Program-made: the position numbers and the translations under genes
IMG/VR virus record: IMGVR_UViG_2531839668_000006
Source of the DNA: a virus
Lineage: Duplodnaviria; Heunggongvirae; Uroviricota; Caudoviricetes
Direction: 5' to 3' (one strand)
Length of the DNA stretch: 10,301 nucleotides
Shown here: positions 214 to 10,301 of the stretch, piece by piece
How the letters are laid out: every line of letters begins with the position of its first letter
Numbering within the stretch: position 1 is the stretch's first letter
Notes under the pieces: generated by a model
Told to the model about the DNA's origin: nothing
The model's database searches: none
The model's input: only the letters and a program-made list of their open reading frames with translations

Positions 214-621
214 TTATCGGATAATTTTTTTCATATATAGAAGCTGTAACTCATCTTCATCAAAAACGCTATAAGGTTCACAGTAATTCTTAAATTCCTC
301 ATAAGTTAAGAAATCGTGAATATCTTTAATTTCCTGAACCACACACACTGAAGTTGCAACAGATCTAAACCGAGCTGGACCTTGTCCATCTGAAGTACGA
401 TAAATAAGCAAATTATCTCCAGGCTTTAGGCTGGCTACCCCATGCATTTTTGTTAAGTATACTTTTTCAATACTGTTGGTATGTGATATATCAGCGATGA
501 TACCAGCACTCTCATTGTGGAGTTTTGACTCAGGGAAAAGACGTGTATGCCATGCAGGATAAATACTTAATAGATAATTTCTCCCCTGCAATTTGACTAA
601 GGGATAATTAGCATAGCTCAT
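214..621 (-). CDS. Hypothetical protein (135 aa), second gene of AT-rich cargo cassette; fold unassigned, weak PUA-like/ASCH-like beta-barrel impression
   Basis: ATG at 621..619 preceded by AAGGAG with about 7 nt spacing (reverse complement of 628..633). Visibly AT-rich compared with the phage core. Fold suggestion rests only on loose motifs (LQGR near N-terminus, LKPGDNLL loop). Confidence 0.5.
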   Translation of the reverse strand: MSYANYPLVKLQGRNYLLSIYPAWHTRLFPESKLHNESAGIIADISHTNSIEKVYLTKMHGVASLKPGDNLLIYRTSDGQGPARFRSVATSVCVVQEIKDIHDFLTYEEFKNYCEPYSVFDEDELQLLYMKKIIR

Positions 622-624
622 TTT

Positions 625-1095
625 TTACTCCTTCCATACCAAGTTTTTAAAGTATACACCTTCTTGCCCATTAATCGTAGAAAGATTTTTCCTCGCCTTT
701 AAAACAAAACCATATTTAGTTAATAAGCGAATTAATCCTGAATGCTTATCAAATATAGTAACATATACTTCTTTTAGTTTGTTTCTCATAGCAAATTGAA
801 ACATAATTCTAATAAAACGCTCTCCAAGTTTGGTTCCATGAGCATCGATTTTAAATGTGCCAAGCTTTACTCGCTTCATCTTTGGAAACGTTGGAGTCAT
901 ATCACTCAACTCTTCATCTTCTATTTTCAAATAGAGAAAACCATCGATTTCACCTAATTCATTACGTGATACAAACGCCTTATTTTTACCTTTTGAGAGA
1001 AACCAAACATCAAATCCTTCATAATCAGCTCTTAGGCTGTTAAAAAACGGATCTTTTAAATCGATATCACTAAAAAATTTTTCCTCGATAGACAT
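625..1095 (-). CDS. GNAT-fold (acetyltransferase-like) protein, 156 aa, first gene of AT-rich cargo cassette
   Basis: ATG at 1095..1093 with an upstream AGAGGAA Shine-Dalgarno-like sequence. C-terminal half has GNAT-like topology: VKLGTFKID, an HGTKLGER loop, then EVYVTIFDKHSGLIRLLTKYGF resembling GNAT motif B. Called from motif memory only. Confidence 0.5.
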   Translation of the reverse strand: MSIEEKFFSDIDLKDPFFNSLRADYEGFDVWFLSKGKNKAFVSRNELGEIDGFLYLKIEDEELSDMTPTFPKMKRVKLGTFKIDAHGTKLGERFIRIMFQFAMRNKLKEVYVTIFDKHSGLIRLLTKYGFVLKARKNLSTINGQEGVYFKNLVWKE

Positions 1096-1143
1096 CCAGT
1101 TCCTCTTCTAATGGCAGCGAGCAAGTGACCTTATCCTTACATG

Positions 1144-1170
1144 TTAATAGATAACCACAGCTGTAGGCAA
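1144..1170 (-). promoter_or_regulatory. Candidate sigma70 promoter for the cargo cassette (-35 TTGCCT, -10 TATTAA on - strand) with an 8-bp palindrome ACAGCTGT in the spacer
   Basis: Reverse complement of 1165..1170 is TTGCCT and of 1144..1149 is TATTAA, 15 bp apart, about 45 nt upstream of the ATG at 1095. Palindrome ACAGCTGT lies at 1157..1164. Confidence 0.25.
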
Positions 1171-1271
1171 TTACATACATTAAGCTCTATCAAACAACGA
1201 GCAAACTTAAGCACCGCTACAACTCAACCTAGCTGATGCCTGTTTTGACGATTACCCTATCAGCGCGCGCT

Positions 1272-1290
1272 CGTATCCCCGCCACGCCTG
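1272..1290. other. cos-like GC-rich core resembling the P2/186 cohesive-end sequence
   Basis: Reverse complement of 1272..1290 is GGCGTGGCGGGGATACGAG. As I recall them, the 19-nt cohesive ends are GGCGAGGCGGGGAAAGCAC (P2) and GGCGTGGCGGGGAAAGCAT (186), so the first 13 nt match the 186 form. Position (after the SOS operon and cargo) fits a P2-like prophage map. Recalled sequences are unverified. Confidence 0.4.
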
Positions 1291-1333
1291 CCCGCTTTAT
1301 GTAGTGGTTTTCATGCACCTGCATGATCTACGC

Positions 1334-1357
1334 AAAAGCCCGCCAGAACTGGCGGGC
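1334..1357 (-). terminator. Rho-independent terminator on the - strand, downstream of the lipoprotein gene
   Basis: GC-rich inverted repeat GCCCGCCAG (1338..1346) / CTGGCGGGC (1349..1357); the - strand transcript then reads UUUU (plus-strand AAAA at 1334..1337). Confidence 0.5.
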
Positions 1358-1461
1358 CTTAACACAAAAGATCCTCAAACGATCATGCGATCTCATGCAG
1401 CATAGACATGCGCGTTTATGCAGAATGTGCAAAATCGTAACATACTCAGCAAGCGTGAAAC

Positions 1462-2139
1462 CTAGAACGTGACAGCCTTGTCAAAGCCAGAAATAATTGT
1501 ATAAGAAATAGACGAGTTATCAGCCTTGTTCACTTTGAACTTGGCACCTTTGTAAGCGATAACGTCACTTCCCTTAGAATCTACAGAAAAATCTGTTGTA
1601 AATGCTGCACGAGCCATATCGTTTGCAAATTCACGATAGGTGAACTTCATTACACCGCCTGCATTTCCATTGTATTCGATAGTCTTAACCAATGAGTTAC
1701 TAACTCGACACAGCCCATCAGGAACACGTTTGATAGAAATTTCTGATGCAGTATAAGAAGTACCATTTGGCGGTGATATCTCATTTTTTGCAGCATCGTA
1801 ACTAACATAATCAACATAGTTACCGATTTGCCCATAGAGATTTTTTAACGCAACAGCTTGAGGGTTATGATAATTGCGGTAAATTCCATTCCCCTCACTG
1901 CAATATGTACCAGCAGCGATAGAAGACAATGCACCATTAGCCGCACCAAGTTCTAGTACGTCCGTTTTAAATCCAGTAGCAGATGTGATAATGGGATCGC
2001 CCATGTAGGCGGTAGCACTTTGCCCAATAGCAGGCTTCACCACTTCAATAGCAGTGATATTTCGGTTAGAAGCATGTGGCACGCAACCAGTTAGGATTAC
2101 AGCAAGAGATATTGGTAACGCTACATTATTAATTTTCAT
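1462..2139 (-). CDS. Predicted lipoprotein, 225 aa, unknown function (cargo between SOS operon and cos-like site)
   Basis: Internal ATG at 2139..2137 gives MKINNVALPISLAVILTGC, a typical lipoprotein signal peptide with lipobox LTGC. Mature part is Ser/Thr/Asn/Gly-rich. The longer ORF from 2193 would bury the signal peptide. Confidence 0.7.
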   Translation of the reverse strand: MKINNVALPISLAVILTGCVPHASNRNITAIEVVKPAIGQSATAYMGDPIITSATGFKTDVLELGAANGALSSIAAGTYCSEGNGIYRNYHNPQAVALKNLYGQIGNYVDYVSYDAAKNEISPPNGTSYTASEISIKRVPDGLCRVSNSLVKTIEYNGNAGGVMKFTYREFANDMARAAFTTDFSVDSKGSDVIAYKGAKFKVNKADNSSISYTIISGFDKAVTF

Positions 2140-2162
2140 TTTTAGCCTATTATTCTTTTCTT

Positions 2163-2197
2163 GACAAAAAACAAGGCGATATCTGATTGACATCGCC
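2163..2197 (-). terminator. Candidate Rho-independent terminator of the SOS operon (- strand)
   Basis: Stem GGCGAT (2175..2180) / ATCGCC (2192..2197), extendable by a wobble pair; the - strand RNA continues UUGUUUUUUGU (plus-strand A-run 2165..2173). Stem is short, loop about 11 nt. Confidence 0.4.
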
Positions 2198-2252
2198 TCT
2201 CACTCATATGTAACCCTTTTTGATTAGTAAAAACAAGCGTCTATTGACAAAA

Positions 2253-2486
2253 TCAATGCAGCCAGCTGTCGTCTTCCCACACCTTCTGCATAATTTTCAT
2301 CACTTGTTTTCTTTCTTCGTCCAGTTGCAGTCCGGTCAGTTCCACACCGTTAGAGCTACCTTTACGGATACGGATTACCGTTTTGGGATACAGGGGGCGC
2401 AGATTGCGGTAAAGCTCGGATTCAAGGGCGTCCAGGGTAGACTGGCTAATCTTCTGCTCTTTATCGATCATTATTTCAATGCGCAT
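2253..2486 (-). CDS. dinI: DinI-family protein (77 aa)
   Basis: From the internal ATG at 2486..2484 the product MRIEIMIDK...LDALESEL...ERKQVMKIMQKVWEDDSWLH aligns along its length with E. coli DinI as recalled (MRIEVTIAK...IDALAGEL...QETWESADDW). GAGGTG lies 6 nt upstream of the ATG. Confidence 0.85.
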   Translation of the reverse strand: MRIEIMIDKEQKISQSTLDALESELYRNLRPLYPKTVIRIRKGSSNGVELTGLQLDEERKQVMKIMQKVWEDDSWLH

Positions 2487-2838: not shown

Positions 2839-5253
2839 TTAATACAGGTTCCGCCACTTATCATCTTCCTGCAAACGCTGGTTCCGATAGAAGATACGCA
2901 GGCCTGCTCCTGACGGAATACTGCCGCCGCGAAGGAGTAAATCGACCTCTTTCTCGCTGCCATCAAATCCTCTGGATTTCAGTTCATAGACGAGCTGCTG
3001 TCGTTGATGGTCTGTAATTCGCTGTTTGTAGTCTCTACGCCGTTTCGGTTTCACCAGACGTAACCTTGCAGCCAATTCCCGGCGCTCCTTTTTGTTCATA
3101 CTGTGCAGGTAATCGTGCAACACCTTGTCATCCATGCGGGTAATGTCCGTTCTGGGGTCCCCATCAGCTGATTTATCTTTCTCCTGTTGGTTCAAATTTT
3201 CAGCAAGGGGACAGTTATTGCCACGAGTCCAAGGGGCGCAAGCGCCCTGGTCGGCTGCCGCCTCCTGAACGTCAACGGCCTTACGAACCATTTTCCACTT
3301 CACGGCATGAGTGCAGATCTTGCCCTCTGCAATAGGTGACCAGATGCCATAAATACGAATGCCGTGATCGCCATAGGCGGTCGGCTCTTCGTTGATTTCA
3401 TAAGCAGTTCTGATGAGGTGATATTTGCGGGGAACCAGTACGCCACCCTGCTTCATGATGTAGGTGGCAAAACAACCAGCATCAGCAGCAGCCAGAATGG
3501 CATCAAGGCGCGGGTTATCCAGTACCGGCGCACCTGCTTTTTTGTCCCCCTGTTGCCTTGCCGCCTGACCAGCCAGCAATCGCAGTTCACGGTAAGCCTG
3601 ACGCCCCGGAATGCCAAAGAAGCGGAATTGCTGAACACGATGCAGAGACGCCCAGGCATTAACGTATTCAGCATTATCACGCAGGGATTTCCCCGTTTCC
3701 TTGCTGATCTCGCCAGCCAGACCACGCCCGTCAATGTTCTTACTGATGTATTTCGCGATGTAGCTTGTTGGCGTACCTTTGCGCGGGTTAATCAACTCAG
3801 ACTTAAAGCGCGGCCCAGTGTTATTGCCCAGCTCCTCGCGGTCTTCACGGATGGCAAACTTACGCAGTAATGCAGTGATGGTGCGGCGGTCTTTTTTGCG
3901 CATAAAACACAACAGGTGCCAGTGAACTGTACCGTCATGATGCGGCTCAGCCACCCGCACGCCATACCACCGCAATCCGGCTTTGTGCATCGCCTTACGA
4001 AATGCAGCAAACATGCCGACCAGATAATCACTGCTTTGTCTTACCGTCGCATTTGTCCAGGTTGGGTTGGGCCTGCCGTTATTTAGCGTGGAATGGAAAC
4101 GTGACGGACAGGTGATGGTGTAGAAAACGGCGCAGTCACCGCGCATTTCCGCGATAAGCTCCAGACCTTTAACACAGGCCATCATCTCATTGCGGCGATG
4201 CGCTGGGTTGCTGCTGCTGGCGTTTACCACATCCTCCATGTCCAGCGTGTCGCCGTCTTCGTTCACCAGTTCATGAGAACGGAAAAACTCCAGCGACTTA
4301 CGGCGCTGCTCACGTTTATGCATCACGGCTTCATAGCTGACATAAGGAGATGCTTTTTTGCTGACAAGGCAGACTGCACGCAACTGCTCTTCCCGCCATT
4401 CGCAACGCATCTTCCATAATTTCCGATACCACCAGTCGGCGCACAACATACGCGCCAGCGAACCCGGAATGAGTTCATAGGGCACGGGTTTACGGCGGTT
4501 TCTTTTCCGACGGAGTTGCTCAAACGCAGGCGGGATGACATCCAGACGCAGGGTTTCCGCTGCCACCCTTTCCCATGTATTGCGGATTTCTTCTGGCTTA
4601 ACGTCATCGGTGGCATACAAATCGCCACAAGCGGCATCAAGGCACATACTCATATGCGCAGCTACCAGGGTGGACAGGCGTTTCACCTGATCCTGACTCA
4701 TTTCAGGCAGGATCAGCAGGCCGTCCAGCCCTTCATGGCTTGCCATAAAGCGAAAAGATGCAGATAGCTGACTGTCGCGTACATGCTCCAGTCGTTCCAG
4801 ACATGGCTTAATCGTCTCACGTAAATAGCGGGAATAAGCCTTTGGCCTGCCCAGGCTGCTGAAGTATTCAATACGTTGCATCAGCGGCTTGCTGATATGG
4901 GAAGGCTGGGCGTTGACGTCCGCCAGAATGACCATATCCGGATTAAAACGCTGCTGCTCATGCGCCAGCTTTGCCCGACTAATGAGCTTATCCTGTTCCA
5001 TTTCGCGCTGGACAGGATCACGGGATTCATTAAAGAAATAACGCTCCCAGACCTGATCACTCAGCGCCTCACGGCGCAGCTGTTCCTGCTCGTTATCGGC
5101 AGCGTACAGAGTGATCAGGTTTGAAAGCGTAGAAACCGGCGCAACTTCCACCGGGTCCAGATAAGGGTTAATGGCCTTTTTCGGGCTGTTCCATGAGAAC
5201 GATGCGGCAGCTTCGTTAAAGCCGCAGCAGTTGTTCATATCGGCATGACTCAT
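2839..5253 (-). CDS. A: P2 gpA-type rolling-circle replication initiator (804 aa)
   Basis: Contains an HUH-type motif VHWHLL (codons at about 3916..3924) and paired active-site tyrosines SYIAKYISK (Tyr codons 3762..3760 and 3750..3748), as in phiX174/P2 gpA. Start ATG at 5253..5251 overlaps the Dam stop codon (ATGA). Confidence 0.9.
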
Positions 5254-7394: not shown

Positions 7395-7904
7395 TCACAG
7401 CAAACCGAATGAAGCACCGAGTCCGGTCACGGTATCAACTGCACTCGCCATCGCAGGGTTAGCCTGTAAACGGGCCTGCAATGAAACAGCAGCCAACGCC
7501 ATCAGTCGTGTTACAGAGTTAATGCTGCTGATAGCATCACGACGACCTGCACTGGTTTTTACATCGCCAGATACCGCACCTGCAGCAACACGCCCGATCT
7601 CTGCGGTTGCACTCATGACGTAATGTGGCAGTTTCTCTTTTGCCACCTCATTAATCGGTACACATGGCAGACAATGAATCTGTGCCAGAAAACCATCTAC
7701 CAGCGTTGAATCTTCAGTCAGATCGGTAAGCAGCCAGATTTCTGGTGCGGTTAATAGATGAGGCTGAGCTGGGTTCAGCTTGTTCCGCAGAATCTGCACA
7801 TTCATGCCTGCACGTTCTGCCAGTTGCACCAGATTGTGGCGCAGTGCAAATGCACGACAGGCTTCATCAAAATGTGGATGTTTGGAAACTTGGTAATCAA
7901 ACAT
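7395..7904 (-). CDS. cII: 186 CII-like early regulator (169 aa)
   Basis: Second gene of the early operon, immediately after the Apl-like gene. Length from the ATG at 7904 matches the 169 aa of 186 CII as I recall it. The ORF-track start at 7910 is a TTG; AGAGG lies 8 nt upstream of the ATG. Confidence 0.7.
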
Positions 7905-7936
7905 GGTCAATGCCTCTGATGTATTTCAGAATCGAA

Positions 7937-8158
7937 CTAATTAAGGTTTAGATTGCATTCTGAAAGCGCATCAACGGTCATGGCTGCTATGTTGATCATC
8001 ACTTTTTCGCGTTTTTTATCTTTGCGCAAACGGTGACGGATAAGGCGTCCGTCAGCCAACATGTCATTGATGGTATCGATGGACAGCCCTGTCAGCTCGC
8101 TATAGCGCTCAATAGTCACATGAGGCGTGGTAAGAGTGATTGAAATGTTAGGTCTCAT
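7937..8158 (-). CDS. apl: Apl/Cox-like small HTH regulator/excisionase (73 aa)
   Basis: First gene of the leftward operon, divergent from cI. HTH-like segment [25 protein letters not shown] followed by a basic tail. Size and position match Apl (186) / Cox (P2). Confidence 0.65.
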
Positions 8159-8283
8159 GATGCAACATTCCTCGTTTAATGATGATTAATCAGGACGAAT
8201 ACGGATCGTTTGTACTTTGTGAACACCATAAACATACGATCGCAAAATGAAATCGTCAAGATAAAAGTTCACTTGGAGTGACC
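8159..8283. promoter_or_regulatory. Lysis-lysogeny switch region between apl and cI with candidate pR and operator-like inverted repeats
   Basis: Candidate - strand promoter: -35 TTGACG (reverse complement of 8254..8259), 17 bp, -10 TATGTT (reverse complement of 8231..8236). Inverted repeat GATCGTTTGT (8204..8213) / ACATACGATC (8232..8241), one mismatch, overlaps that -10. A second repeat TTAAT-N4-ATTAA lies at 8176..8189. No convincing rightward promoter for cI found. Confidence 0.45.
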
Positions 8284-8853
8284 ATGAATTTGGAGAAAGG
8301 CGGACGAGGCGCTATAGAGCGCATGGTAGAAGCTTATGGATTCAAAACTCGACAGGCGTTGTGCGATCATTTAGGAATCTCTAAAAGTACACTCGCCACA
8401 CGCTACATGCGTGACTCATTCCCAGCAGAATGGGTAATCCAGTGCGCCCTTGAAACGGGCACCTCGCTTAATTGGCTCACAACCGGACATGGTTCAAAGC
8501 AAACTTCAGGTAATACAAATACTATGGAAGTTGCTAAATATGTATTATCTGATGGTGCCTTGCGTGAAGACGGTTTTTATATTTTTGATAAGGGATTTCT
8601 ACCCTCTACGTTTAAAAAACCTTTTGTCATCACAGATAACAATTCTGAATTTATTTGTGATAAAGAATTTGATGATATACGTGATGGTAAATGGGTAATA
8701 AGTATTGATGGCGAAGTAACGATCCGTGACATTACTCGTTTACCCGGTGGAAGAATCTTCGTCGAGGGTGGAAACAGAGCCTTCGAATGTAAGATAGAAG
8801 ACATTGAAATAATTGGTAAAATTATAAGTTTAACAGTCAAGTATGTTAAATAG
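8284..8853 (+). CDS. cI: 186-type CI repressor (189 aa)
   Basis: N-terminal HTH region (AYGFKTRQALCDHLGISKSTLATRYMRDSFPAEWVIQCALETGTSLNWLTTG) matches the 186 CI-type repressor pattern as recalled. Length matches 186 CI (about 192 aa). GGAG lies 5 nt upstream of the ATG at 8284; the ORF-track start at 8278 is a GTG. Confidence 0.8.
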   Translation: MNLEKGGRGAIERMVEAYGFKTRQALCDHLGISKSTLATRYMRDSFPAEWVIQCALETGTSLNWLTTGHGSKQTSGNTNTMEVAKYVLSDGALREDGFYIFDKGFLPSTFKKPFVITDNNSEFICDKEFDDIRDGKWVISIDGEVTIRDITRLPGGRIFVEGGNRAFECKIEDIEIIGKIISLTVKYVK

Positions 8854-8868
8854 CACCGGGAGGAAACT

Positions 8869-9060
8869 ATGCTTGGTAAGGTATTTTTTGTGGTTTTGTC
8901 ATGTTCTTTGTTATTAAACCCACTAACTACCTATGCTAGAAATTATCCCTGCTCAGGGAAAAAGGGAGGTGTTTCTCACTGTACCTCAGATGGCAAATTC
9001 GTTTGCAATGATGGAACTATTAGTAAATCCAAAAAAATCTGTACTAAAAACTCACGATAA
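8869..9060 (+). CDS. Small secreted Cys-rich protein (63 aa) between cI and int
   Basis: Strong GGGAGG with 5 nt spacing before the ATG at 8869. N-terminal hydrophobic signal-like segment ([22 protein letters not shown]), then a Lys/Gly/Ser-rich region with four cysteines. AT-rich. Confidence 0.55.
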
Positions 9061-9195
9061 CTTTTGCTTTTATATCTGCGTCTAAAATAAAAATGAGCCG
9101 CAGGTTAACCGCAAAAGTTACATGCTCACATAGCAAAAAGAATAGCCAACTTCATTATGGCTTCAGTGAGATGTATGGTCGTAGGATTTCATACA

Positions 9196-9224
9196 TTGAC
9201 ACTGGTTATACATACAGTAAAAAT
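9196..9224 (+). promoter_or_regulatory. Candidate int-proximal sigma70 promoter (-35 TTGACA, -10 TAAAAA)
   Basis: Perfect TTGACA at 9196..9201, 16-17 bp spacer, then TAAAAA/AAAAAT at 9218..9224, about 25 nt upstream of the int ATG and its GGAGGG at 9235..9240. Confidence 0.3.
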
Positions 9225-9248
9225 GCTCTCTACTGGAGGGCATTTTTT

Positions 9249-10301
9249 ATGGCAGTACGAAAACTCACCACAGGGAAATGGCTTTGCGAATGTTACCCCG
9301 CCGGACGAAGTGGGCGTCGTGTGCGTAAACAATTCGCCACCAAAGGCGAAGCTCTGGCTTTTGAGCGTCACACTATGGAAGAAACCGAATCAAAGCCATG
9401 GCTGGGCGAATCAGTGGATCGTCGAACCCTGAAAGACGTGGTTGAGCTATGGTTCAAACTACATGGTAAATCTCTGACTGCTGGGCAGCATGTCTATGAC
9501 AAATTGCTGCTGATGGTTGACGCTCTGGGCAATCCTCTTGCAACCGATCTCACCTCTAAAATGTTTGCCCACTATCGAGATAAACGCCTGACAGGCGAGA
9601 TCTACTTCAGCGAGAAATGGAAGAAAGGAGCAAGCCCGGTCACCATTAACCTGGAGCAAAGCTATCTAAGTAGTGTTTTTAGCGAACTATCCCGTCTGGG
9701 CGAATGGTCGTATCCGAACCCACTGGAGAACATGCGAAAATTCACCATCGCAGAAAAAGAGATGGCATGGCTTACCCATGAGCAGATTGTTGAATTACTG
9801 GCTGATTGCAAACGTCAGGACCCAATTCTAGCACTGGTAGTTAAGATATGCTTAAGCACAGGCGCACGCTGGCGAGAAGCCGTAAATCTTACTCGTTCAC
9901 AGGTGACCAAATACCGAATTACCTTTGTAAGAACGAAGGGGAAGAAAAACAGAAGTATCCCTATCAGTAAAGAGCTTTACGAAGAGATCATGGCGCTTGA
10001 TGGGTTCAATTTCTTCACAGACTGCTATTTTCAATTTTTATCCGTGATGGAAAAAACGTCTATCGTGCTCCCTCGCGGTCAACTCACACACGTTCTGCGC
10101 CATACGTTTGCGGCGCACTTCATGATGTCGGGTGGAAACATTCTGGCCTTACAAAAAATTCTCGGACACCACGATATAAAAATGACTATGCGTTACGCAC
10201 ATCTGGCACCGGATCATCTGGAAACGGCGCTCCGTTTCAATCCTCTGGCAACGCTGCCAAGTGGCGACAAAGTGGCGGCAGCGGTTGGCATTACCCCGTA
10301 A
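9249..10301 (+). CDS. int: P2-family tyrosine integrase (350 aa from internal start)
   Basis: C-terminal catalytic region (CLSTGARWREA, RITFVRTKGKKNRSIPIS, HVLRHTFAAHFMMSGGNILALQKILGHHDIKMTMRYAHLAP) closely resembles P2 Int as recalled. The ATG at 9249 has GGAGGG 8 nt upstream and begins MAVRKLTTGKW, like P2 Int MAIKKLDDGRY. The ORF from 9093 is a probable over-extension. The TAA stop is the last codon of the window. Confidence 0.9.
   Translation: MAVRKLTTGKWLCECYPAGRSGRRVRKQFATKGEALAFERHTMEETESKPWLGESVDRRTLKDVVELWFKLHGKSLTAGQHVYDKLLLMVDALGNPLATDLTSKMFAHYRDKRLTGEIYFSEKWKKGASPVTINLEQSYLSSVFSELSRLGEWSYPNPLENMRKFTIAEKEMAWLTHEQIVELLADCKRQDPILALVVKICLSTGARWREAVNLTRSQVTKYRITFVRTKGKKNRSIPISKELYEEIMALDGFNFFTDCYFQFLSVMEKTSIVLPRGQLTHVLRHTFAAHFMMSGGNILALQKILGHHDIKMTMRYAHLAPDHLETALRFNPLATLPSGDKVAAAVGITP

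Follow-up and report, generated by a model that had tools for sequence, protein, structure and literature searches.

The window, meaning the whole 10,301-nucleotide stretch that was analysed (IMG/VR record IMGVR_UViG_2531839668_000006), closes with three genes: a cI repressor gene, a short gene referred to here as ydcA-like, and an integrase gene (Table 1). A first-pass annotation had described the middle one as a 63-amino-acid ORF with a strong ribosome-binding site on the repressor strand, and this description was borne out; all three genes lie on the plus strand, and the GGAGG core of the ribosome-binding site and the ATG are both kept in three diverged E. coli alleles. The cI stop codon (8851-8853) and the ATG of the ydcA-like gene are separated by 15 nt. 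On the other side of cI, the layout of the control region is analogous to that annotated for phages 186 and K139. Within it, a consensus scan located a pR-like sequence, TTGACG-17-TATGTT, on the minus strand (8259..8231), and the same type of scan did not pick up pL. The apl/cox-like gene beyond it gave nothing above cut-off in a Pfam search. The window and the related loci hold prophage genes only, with no type IV secretion system (T4SS) genes near the phage copy.

Table 1. Features in and around the cI-int interval (window coordinates)
Feature	Position	Strand	Basis or remark
cII-like activator gene	7395..7904	-	PF06892 3.4e-42
apl/cox-like excisionase-repressor gene, first of lytic operon	7937..8158	-	matches 186, 813R9 and Fels-2 in position and size
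Divergent control region, apl/cox vs cI	8159..8283		expected site of face-to-face pR and pL promoters
cI repressor gene (186 type), first of lysogenic operon	8284..8853	+	PF07022 2.8e-33, PF16452 5.4e-29; coordinates from PGAP annotation, transferred from matching record
Ribosome-binding site (Shine-Dalgarno) GGGAGG	8858..8863	+	read from sequence; 5 nt 5' of ATG
ydcA-like gene	8869..9060	+	63 codons plus stop; YdcA-family protein
Predicted Sec-type signal peptide, codons 1-23	8869..8937	+	signal peptidase I cut predicted after A23
Predicted mature peptide, 40 residues	8938..9057	+	4.3 kDa, pI 9.7, net charge ~+7; core motif with four invariant Cys
Non-coding ydcA-int spacer, 188 nt	9061..9248	+	alignment: conserved in alleles possessing the spacer
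Hairpin in spacer	9114..9098	-	consensus match only
Promoter-like site in spacer	9196..9224	+	consensus match only
Tyrosine integrase gene (P2/186 type), last of lysogenic operon	9249..10301	+	PF24624 3.2e-32, PF00589 1.4e-21

The most probable start of the integrase is 9249 (MAVRKL..., with a GGAGGG ribosome-binding site), to which the PGAP start is equivalent, and not 9093. Placing the start there leaves the 188-nt spacer, the last ~60-80 nt of which are part of an int module common to other phages; phage matches over the spacer begin at 9171 (KP12, 813R9) and 9191 (4LV2017). No terminator-like site was found on the plus strand between cI and int, and an Rfam scan of 7800-9400 returned no credible match, its sole hit being Phe_leader (E 0.79), far under the gathering score. 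In the records of both 186 and K139, the stretch from cI to int is annotated as a single lysogenic operon read from pL. As these genes of the window share a strand without such a terminator-like site, the ydcA-like gene should, by analogy, be transcribed with cI.

The signal peptide was called from a reading of n-, h- and c-regions in the sequence and from the alignment of homologues. An n-region of MLGK is followed by a hydrophobic core of 15 residues and by T-Y-A before the predicted cut, with a GRAVY of +1.46 for the signal peptide; the alanine at -1 (A23) is invariant in 32-35 homologues, the N-termini of which vary yet stay hydrophobic and end in A/S/T-x-A. The predicted architecture, with a Sec signal peptide at the N-terminus and one short mature domain after it, is that of the YdcA family (55-65 amino acids in total), and the mature product should be a strongly basic peptide of 40 residues. 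These features, together with the conserved cysteines, support the proposal in the first-pass annotation of a small, exported, Cys-rich product. Its count of four cysteines holds for the predicted mature peptide, in which C28, C38, C46 and C58 are invariant across the YdcA family, but the ORF has five, the additional C12 being located in the signal peptide and not conserved. A lipoprotein reading with a lipobox of the Cor/Llp type was rejected; the sole candidate, VLS-C12, follows a 7-residue hydrophobic stretch, and in homologues either I or F stands at -1 or the Cys is missing. In an AlphaFold2 model, residues 31-60 have pLDDT values of 85-92.

The YdcA family and its chromosomal members

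The sequence is not a new one and places the protein in the YdcA family (NCBIfam NF007463, PRK10040; Pfam PF27300; PHROG 6000). It scored 115.8 bits against the NF007463 cut-off of 93, with residues 5-63 aligned to the whole 58-position profile, and 68.5 bits against NF007462, under the cut-off of 118 for that model, which places it in the former subfamily and not the latter. The match to phrog_6000 had an E value of 1.9e-34. Sixty-four close homologues were found, 58 of which carry a precomputed PF27300 assignment, and the name given by PGAP is YdcA family protein; clustering of homologues at 50% identity gave 312 clusters. The family motif PCSGxKGGxxxC...FxCxDGxxSxSKKxC is present at every position in the window protein, and 32 homologues show no variation at P27, C28, S29, K32, G33, G34, C38, F44, C46, G49, S52, S54, K55 and C58. 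The motif also holds in 147 representatives, and the 31-residue four-Cys core is almost unchanged from the Enterobacterales to the Pasteurellaceae, Moraxellaceae and Betaproteobacteria. The family was thus already catalogued, and both membership in it and the existence of a paralogue in E. coli K-12 had escaped the first-pass annotation. Among weaker hits, a match to the NCBIfam lpg1681 family (E 0.11) was far under its cut-off, and a GULLO2-like match in a Pfam scan (E 0.075) was sub-threshold and is considered spurious.

The K-12 paralogue is YdcA (b1419), the product of a core gene between cybB and hokB, and it likewise has a Sec signal peptide, a mature peptide of ~35-40 residues and the four-Cys motif. 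The window protein is 57% identical to an Escherichia/Shigella chromosomal match, taken as ydcA from the presence of a cybB-sized upstream ORF, and its DNA is 78% identical to chromosomal ydcA across an aligning stretch of 87 nt. The two genes differ in location, cybB-hokB as opposed to the cI-int slot of a prophage, and presumably in control, the window gene being driven from pL and the chromosomal ydcA from an RpoS/YdcI-linked promoter. YdcA of K-12 is described as carrying a signal sequence and as predicted to be periplasmic (bioRxiv 10.1101/2024.02.12.579971). An RpoS-type constitutive promoter peak was mapped upstream of ydcA (PMC5493296), and the gene was reported to be up-regulated as cells enter stationary phase (bioRxiv 10.1101/310961) and induced at pH 5 under YdcI (PMC7642389). 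Deletion of ydcA rendered E. coli W sensitive to 300 mM 3-hydroxypropionate, a phenotype overridden by deletion of yieP (PMC7642389). A full-text literature search found no paper on the phage-borne copy.

Most family members are stand-alone chromosomal genes without phage neighbours, and cI or int was adjacent at only ~5 of 75 species-level loci. A comparison of the nearest neighbours of these 75 loci with Pfam gave 72 families, none of them dominant as a conserved partner; SNase genes occur among the neighbours. Phages as well as small plasmids in the genera Haemophilus, Moraxella, Acinetobacter and Yersinia also carry homologues, and ydcA-like genes form cargo of mobilisable plasmids of 3.9-5.4 kb. 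On two small Moraxellaceae plasmids, a weakly similar membrane protein (E 3e-8) that is absent elsewhere is encoded downstream in both.

Among E. coli prophage alleles, dN/dS is 0.05-0.15, with synonymous to nonsynonymous ratios of 10:2 and 14.5:4.5. Since substitutions are mostly synonymous and neither the ribosome-binding site nor the ATG has been lost, the ORF is a real gene under strong purifying selection and not a chance ORF. It was found in 628-648 of 5,426 complete E. coli genomes, such that about one in eight has it on a prophage of the P2/186 type, and at least 1,000 contigs encode the exact protein. That the ORF is a non-functional passenger or a spurious, untranslated remnant of recombination at the cI-int junction might be argued from its shortness, from the AT-rich character of 8500-9200 (31-38% GC), where ORFs arise easily, and from one genome in which the gene is broken by an IS5 element. 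The selection on the alleles, the conserved ribosome-binding site, a family motif invariant across classes of Proteobacteria and a score above the curated NF007463 cut-off speak against this reading, which is highly improbable and, given the conservation data, effectively refuted; the degraded, unconserved remnant envisaged as a refutation in the first-pass annotation is not what was found.

The cI-int slot in related phages

Phage 186 had been described in the first-pass annotation as having int directly downstream of cI, and this was correct: its cI (22433..23011) and int (21423..22433) share a single base (U32222). The slot is also empty in Fels-2, SEN8 and vB_YenM_06.16-2. The word "inserted" in the first-pass annotation expresses the contrast with 186 and implies no particular direction of change. 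Although cI and int have diverged in type, the order cI-ydcA-int is common to the E. coli alleles and to prophages of Yersinia alsatica, aldovae and nurmii, and the position next to cI/int is conserved in one Pasteurellaceae genome as well. HP2 and S2, two phages of Haemophilus, have a homologue directly after cI that their annotation lacks, and in HP2 its ATG overlaps the cI stop codon; orf1-4 of HP1 proved unrelated to YdcA. In phages of Moraxella and Acinetobacter, the ydcA-like gene belongs to the head-tail module instead of the lysogeny module, so that a lysogeny-linked role does not apply to the family at large.

Among the relatives compared, the slot is empty in some and holds variable cargo in others. 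Two close relatives, vB_EcoM-813R9 and a prophage of E. coli JA0072, have the defence systems PD-Lambda-1 (E 3e-120) and PDC-S20 (E 2e-171) there; in the latter, the ydcA-like gene is kept and is followed by a KAP NTPase (PDC-S20). Exported proteins are encoded in the slot of PSP3, Pmp6 and HP2, that of PSP3 being a host-like periplasmic protein (DUF2511). Defence hotspots in the P2 family were reportedly described by Rousset et al. (2022). A cI-int hotspot is on record for K139-like phages (PMC9122126), and ~8% of P2 defence systems sit between integrase and primase (PMC13586616). K139 itself has the gene order cI-orf2-glo-int with PL annotated, and its Glo is described as a "periplasmic protein; involved in phage exclusion" (GenBank). 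The claim that such a placement is typical of conversion or exclusion genes is thus upheld to the extent that, in relatives, the slot is a cargo site holding defence, exported and exclusion genes.

What the window protein has in common with K139 Glo is its small size, its predicted export and a gene that sits between cI and int, within the lysogenic (pL) operon of a phage of the P2 family (Peduoviridae). Glo differs in having 137 amino acids and in not being Cys-rich, and the K139 slot also holds orf2; BLASTP between the two proteins gave E 0.17 and no meaningful alignment. The two are alike in position and predicted compartment but do not form a family. Glo is said to block K139 reinfection at an early step. 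Other small phage proteins of the periplasm or outer membrane, namely T4 Sp, T5 Llp and Cor of phi80 and HK022, block superinfection at adsorption or DNA entry. No homology of the window protein to any of these was detected; Llp and Cor are lipoproteins, whereas the window protein is without a conserved lipobox, and Sp is made by a lytic phage. A search of PADLOC-DB 2.0 with the window protein gave no family match at E <= 0.01. PD-Lambda-1 and PDC-S20, in contrast to the predicted exported peptide of 4 kDa, are large cytoplasmic systems of NTPase or nuclease type.

Possible relation to Dis2 and possible roles of the prophage copy

The only structural relative found, a tentative one, was a lobe of Legionella pneumophila Dis2 (Lpg0823) of the Dot/Icm T4SS (PDB 7MUC/7MUD). 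Foldseek with the AlphaFold2 model placed Dis2 at the top (probability 0.97, 39% identity over 38 columns); the sequence similarity is marginal. A sequence-profile search of the PDB also had Dis2 at the top, and a diverse, domain-only profile put LDL-receptor class A (LDL-A) repeats level with it. These repeats were read as convergence of Cys pattern and set aside; they cover only the second half of the domain and are eukaryotic. Dis2 is Sec-exported and disulfide-pinned and has the motif CCSKMGGINYC..RLVCNNG, and family members with the variant CSGKMGGI..C..FLCNNG bridge the YdcA and Dis2 motifs. Dis2, however, has two lobes and five disulfides and is a subunit of the T4SS outer-membrane cap (PMC8486379), as opposed to a single domain with four mature cysteines in the window protein, and the window and related loci are without Dot/Icm-type secretion genes. 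In this machine, derived from DNA-transfer systems, Dis2 docks onto lipoproteins of the outer membrane and contacts DotK, DotC and DotD close to it (PMC8486379, PMC12716638); it has been treated as Legionella-specific and as dispensable for T4SS structure and function (PMC12716638).

Taken overall, the best explanation is that the gene is probably, if by no means securely, a cargo ("moron") gene of a 186-like P2-family prophage of E. coli, with a lysogen-made, exported peptide that acts in the envelope. Sharing a transcript with cI and int from pL (and pE), it would be expressed in the lysogen; after Sec export and cleavage by signal peptidase I, the peptide would acquire two disulfides in the periplasm, where it may bind a conserved envelope component or nucleic acid. 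Such binding is favoured by the mean positive charge of the core domain, by its occurrence as tandem repeats and in fusions to secreted nucleases, and by the Dis2 lobe as top structural hit. Against this stand the failure of the consensus scan to detect pL, the marginal sequence similarity to Dis2 and the equal placing of LDL-A repeats. The prophage copy may be a conversion factor of very small size that acts at the envelope. It also offers a tractable entry to the orphan YdcA family, the K-12 core gene included, because it lies beside a repressor gene, relatives have proven exclusion or defence genes in the slot, and the 31-residue core is extremely conserved.

How such a peptide would act is less certain. 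The likeliest role, though tentative and short of even odds, is that of a periplasmic lysogenic-conversion factor acting on superinfecting phage at an early step, like Glo from the same slot. The negative PADLOC search counts against it, as do a paralogue whose only reported phenotype concerns 3-hydroxypropionate and acid tolerance and not phage (PMC7642389), the stand-alone chromosomal setting of most family members and the head-tail location of the Moraxella and Acinetobacter phage copies. The same paralogue, being a core gene between cybB and hokB, lends itself to a different reading, second in likelihood, in which the phage captured a host periplasmic YdcA as a fitness or stress factor, duplicating its envelope or stress role with altered dose or regulation. 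Constitutive expression from pL would then replace RpoS/YdcI control, and the lysogen might better tolerate acid, organic acids and envelope stress. The 3-hydroxypropionate sensitivity of the E. coli W deletion, the induction at pH 5, the RpoS-type promoter peak, the stationary-phase up-regulation and the second host-like periplasmic protein in the PSP3 slot are all consistent with this. Nevertheless, yieP deletion overrides the 3-hydroxypropionate phenotype, the host already owns a copy, and neither the sharing of the slot with cytoplasmic defence systems nor the nuclease fusions of the domain are explained; a stress role is somewhat unlikely. Were the function a mild stress or fitness effect, the finding would be an ordinary one.

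Those fusions bear on a more specific version of exclusion, in which the small basic domain, by binding DNA or by docking on a complex of the outer membrane, would hinder the periplasmic passage of foreign DNA during phage injection, conjugation or transformation. Among the 147 representatives, the domain is fused, N-terminally, to Endonuclease_NS in four and to SNase in one, two unrelated families of secreted nuclease, and SNase genes recur as neighbours. Its positive charge is conserved (mean net charge +3.3 over 154 core domains), one member is fused to a VasL domain of type VI systems, and one gene is part of a type VI cluster. Dis2 as part of a DNA-transfer-derived machine and the carriage of the gene on mobilisable plasmids point the same way, as would the UniRef name "Conjugal transfer protein", the basis of which is unstated; this name was discounted, as no supporting context or traceable evidence for it was found. 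With nuclease fusions confined to five representatives, Dis2 dispensable in its own system and no T4SS genes near the phage copy, a block to DNA passage is distinctly improbable. The broadest proposal that can be drawn from these data, which we consider unlikely, is that the YdcA domain may be a widespread, hitherto unrecognised periplasmic binding module, related to Dis2 lobes and directed at DNA or at outer-membrane machinery, and the prophage copy a minimal 4-kDa superinfection or DNA-entry exclusion factor made from the repressor transcript. If this binding-module or exclusion reading were true, it would provide the first function for the orphan E. coli gene ydcA.

A conserved gene between repressor and integrase

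The window contains the regulatory genes at one end of a 186-like prophage of the P2 family, among which a ydcA-like open reading frame (ORF) lies 15 nt beyond the stop codon of cI. As described in the first-pass annotation, this 63-aa ORF is on the cI strand and has a strong ribosome-binding site (RBS). The RBS reads GGGAGG and is placed 5 nt ahead of the ATG. The ORF called mechanically for the integrase begins at the first ATG of the open frame (9093) and encodes 402 aa, but its 52 additional N-terminal residues match no family. The integrase start is almost certainly 9249 instead, because MAVRKL is encoded there behind a GGAGGG RBS, PGAP chose this start, and the Pfam and PHROG integrase matches begin at about this point; the annotated RefSeq integrase has the equivalent start. 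The ydcA-like gene and int are thus separated by a 188-nt spacer. The region 8500-9200 is AT-rich (31-38% GC vs 45-52% in the surroundings), and similarity to other phages begins again at 9171-9191, within the spacer, which delimits a cargo cassette of approximately 8854-9170. Two elements were recognized in the spacer, solely as consensus matches: a hairpin with a T-run, able to form in minus-strand RNA only, and a promoter-like TTGACA-17-AAAAAT just before the int start. These could, respectively, stop antisense transcription that enters from the host flank and serve as a separate int promoter.

Features of the window, of the cI-int slot in relatives and of two plasmids
Source	Feature	Position	Strand	Remarks
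Window	PDC-M11A-like ORF	214..621	-	
Window	PDC-M11A-like ORF	625..1095	-	
Window	cII	7395..7904	-	PF06892
Window	apl/cox-like gene	7937..8158	-	beside cII
Window	cI	8284..8853	+	PF07022 + PF16452
Window	63-codon ydcA-like ORF	8869..9060	+	between cI and tyrosine integrase gene
Window	ydcA-int spacer	9061..9248		kept among alleles
Window	hairpin plus T-run	9114..9098	-	
Window	promoter-like site	9196..9224	+	
Window	tyrosine integrase	start 9249	+	350 aa
Escherichia phage vB_EcoM-813R9	slot			558-aa protein = PD-Lambda-1 (PADLOC, E 3e-120)
E. coli JA0072 prophage	slot			ydcA-like gene, then KAP-family NTPase = PDC-S20 (E 2e-171)
Klebsiella phage 4LV2017	slot			349-aa unknown protein
PSP3 (L180)	slot, orf28	3076..3414		DUF2511 protein, signal peptide
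Pasteurella phage Pmp6 (L183)	slot, Pmp6_0002	3061..3513		150 aa, signal peptide
HP1	slot			orf1-4
HP2 and S2	slot			unannotated 60-aa YdcA homologue; ATG overlaps cI stop codon
HP2 (L002) and S2	orf1(S), after YdcA homologue	3612..4376 (HP2)		exported, OB-fold-like (HP2: tRNA_anti-like OB fold)
Vibrio phage K139	slot			orf2 + glo, within annotated PL lysogenic operon
Plasmid pApiMCR53a (L015, 3.9 kb)	YdcA-like gene, then membrane protein	728..1697		
Plasmid pA40P1 (L016, 5.4 kb)	YdcA-like gene, then membrane protein	1281..2440		

The ydcA-like ORF is a real gene, conserved and under selection. Searched by itself, it was found in 648 of 5,426 complete E. coli genomes (628 at ≥80% coverage), with alleles falling into identity bands of ≥99%, 95-99% and 90-95%, and a megablast search recovered the cI-ORF-int junction at ≥80% coverage in 592 of the 5,426, its middle gene being named "YdcA family protein" or "hypothetical protein" by PGAP. 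Comparison with two diverged E. coli alleles (L011 and L012) gave dN/dS values of 0.05-0.15, with 10 synonymous to 2 non-synonymous changes for one and 14.5 to 4.5 for the other, and alignment of the alleles showed the RBS and ATG to be kept. The alternative that the ORF is a degraded remnant without conservation, which the first-pass annotation had named as one refuting case, is effectively excluded by this conservation. At least 1,000 contigs encode the identical protein, and an IS5-family element interrupts the gene in one genome. A 3-kb contig labeled "MAG: Bacillota bacterium" (JAEWTL010000113.1) contains a segment of E. coli prophage that is nearly identical (protein identities of 100% for YdcA, 99% for int and 96% for cI), its assignment to the Bacillota most likely being an artefact of binning or contamination.

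The cI-int slot in related phages

The first-pass annotation had stated that int follows cI directly in phage 186, and the two genes do indeed overlap by 1 base in U32222. The survey of this junction in related Peduoviridae that it had proposed revealed a variable site, empty in 186, Fels-2, SEN8 and Yersinia phage vB_YenM_06.16-2 and occupied by cargo, defence or exclusion genes in others. Exported proteins seem to be over-represented in the slot, PSP3 orf28, Pmp6_0002 and HP2 orf1(S) having clear signal peptides. The cI-ydcA-int order was also found in combination with strongly diverged alleles of cI and int in Yersinia alsatica, Y. aldovae and Y. nurmii, where cI is approximately 38% identical to that of the window and int is 64% identical to that of HP2, and in one Pasteurellaceae genome. 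The corresponding junction of K139-like Vibrio phages is a known defence hotspot (PMC9122126), and approximately 8% of the defence systems of P2-like prophages are located between the integrase and primase genes (PMC13586616).

The YdcA domain

The encoded protein scored 115.8 bits against NF007463 (PRK10040.1-2; curated cut-off, 93) and matched PHROG 6000 ("unknown function") with an E of 1.9e-34; homologues carry Pfam PF27300 and the NCBI name "YdcA family protein," and an exhaustive HMMER search recovered 312 clusters (50% identity) at E ≤ 1e-3. The type member, YdcA of E. coli K-12, is encoded at a chromosomal site between cybB and hokB; according to a published description it has 57 aa, a signal sequence, a predicted periplasmic location and no known function (bioRxiv 10.1101/2024.02.12.579971).

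The N-terminal 20-25 residues of the homologues are variable yet hydrophobic and end in A/S/T-x-A with an invariant Ala, as would befit the signal-peptide-like N-terminus noted at first pass, and they precede a near-invariant core of approximately 31 residues, PCSGxKGGxxxC...FxCxDGxxSxSKKxC, kept across the Enterobacterales, Pasteurellaceae, Moraxellaceae, Neisseriaceae, Comamonadaceae and Rhizobiales. Such a pattern in an alignment is typical of an exported domain under tight constraint that is preceded by a Sec signal peptide, and the protein is therefore predicted to be exported. Its sequence would divide into a 23-residue signal peptide and a mature part of 40 residues (4.3 kDa, pI 9.7, net charge of about +7; the mean over 154 domains of the family is +3.3). 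The four cysteines claimed earlier are all in the mature part, but the whole protein has five, the fifth being in the signal peptide and unconserved. A lipoprotein was considered and rejected, this Cys being too early and unconserved.

An AlphaFold2 model built from 32 homologues had a mean pLDDT of 80.5 and was confident in the mature core (85-92 at residues 31-60). Sequence profiles and, separately, a Foldseek search with the model (probability 0.97, E 0.12, 39% identity across 38 columns) gave the same best PDB match, chain AN of 7MUC/7MUD, viz. [quoted passage not shown] The profile match had an E of 3.8e-5 with the signal peptide, 0.064 with the mature part only, and 0.0077 with a diverse domain-only profile, for which eukaryotic LDL-A repeats scored the same. 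Each of the two lobes of Dis2 resembles a YdcA domain, CCSKMGGINYC..RLVCNNG of Dis2 corresponding to an 18-residue stretch of YdcA, and tandem-domain members with CSGKMGGI..C..FLCNNG bridge the two motifs. Kinship between the YdcA domain and Dis2, for which profile and Foldseek searches give concordant but weak support, is probable but not established, because LDL-A repeats score equally in the domain-only search.

In a set of 147 representatives, fusions recur only with secreted non-specific nucleases, which have two unrelated folds (Endonuclease_NS in four members, SNase in one), VasL and DUF4124 being single cases; in the nucleases (P0178, P0157 and P0123 among them), the YdcA domain directly follows the signal peptide. 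P0065, P0066, P0067 and P0091 have two or three tandem domains. The conserved positive charge, tandem repeats, nuclease fusions and Dis2 context together suggest that YdcA may be a small periplasmic binding or docking module, the ligand of which may be DNA or an envelope component.

Proposed function and wider distribution

By comparison with the operons annotated in 186 and K139, and with no plus-strand terminator-like sites found between cI and int, the ydcA-like gene would be transcribed from the lysogenic promoter pL with cI and int, and its product made in the lysogen. Judging from its sequence, the protein would use Sec for export, lose its signal peptide by cleavage after A23 and acquire two disulfides in the periplasm. 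The K139 protein Glo, encoded in the same slot, is annotated as a "periplasmic protein; involved in phage exclusion" and reportedly protects the lysogen from phage at an early step. By analogy, the ydcA-like product may tentatively be regarded as a conversion factor that, like Glo, acts in the periplasm and shields the lysogen early on against other phages. A stress or fitness role, which ranks next and is rather unlikely, is hinted at by chromosomal ydcA: E. coli W without the gene is more sensitive to 300 mM 3-hydroxypropionate (PMC7642389, in which induction at pH 5 under YdcI is also cited), upstream of it there is a promoter peak of a stationary-phase sigma factor (PMC5493296), and its transcript rises at entry into stationary phase (bioRxiv 10.1101/310961). 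Some other function, or no measurable one, accounts for the remaining probability.

Homologues also occur outside lysogeny modules: in the head and tail gene region of 20 Moraxella catarrhalis phages and of Acinetobacter Vieuvirus phages, as the principal cargo of mobilisable plasmids (3.9 kb and 5.4 kb) from Acinetobacter and Psychrobacter, and, in one case, within a type VI secretion cluster carried by a plasmid. The genes closest to it at 75 chromosomal loci, counted at species level, represent 72 different Pfam families, and cI or int adjoins it in only about five. The YdcA gene behaves as a single portable unit, self-sufficient and without a conserved partner. On two very small mobilisable Moraxellaceae plasmids, pApiMCR53a and pA40P1, it is followed by a multi-pass membrane protein gene (23% identity between the two products over 117 aa, E 3e-8), and each pair may constitute a two-gene cargo module.

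The sequence itself is not new, since a RefSeq family name and curated family models exist, and cargo genes of P2-family lysogenic operons, including those for periplasmic exclusion proteins, are already known. Full-text searches of the literature by family name, RefSeq protein accessions, PF27300 and PHROG number returned nothing on a phage-borne copy. As far as this literature extends, the novelty lies in the phage-borne copy, recurrent after cI in E. coli, Yersinia and Haemophilus phages, in the unannotated homologue of HP2 and S2, and in the nuclease fusions and possible link to Dis2. Present in approximately 12% of complete E. coli genomes, the phage copy makes an orphan family easily accessible to experiment.

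Elsewhere in the window, downstream of replication gene A and in the known P2 GpA-portal hotspot, two adjacent same-frame ORFs separated by one in-frame stop (...NLVWKE*KMSYANYP...) correspond to successive segments of the profile for PDC-M11A, a candidate defence protein in PADLOC (11-160, E 1e-58, and 166-296, E 1e-48, of 357 positions). The locus looks like a defence-candidate gene that either carries a nonsense codon or is naturally split.
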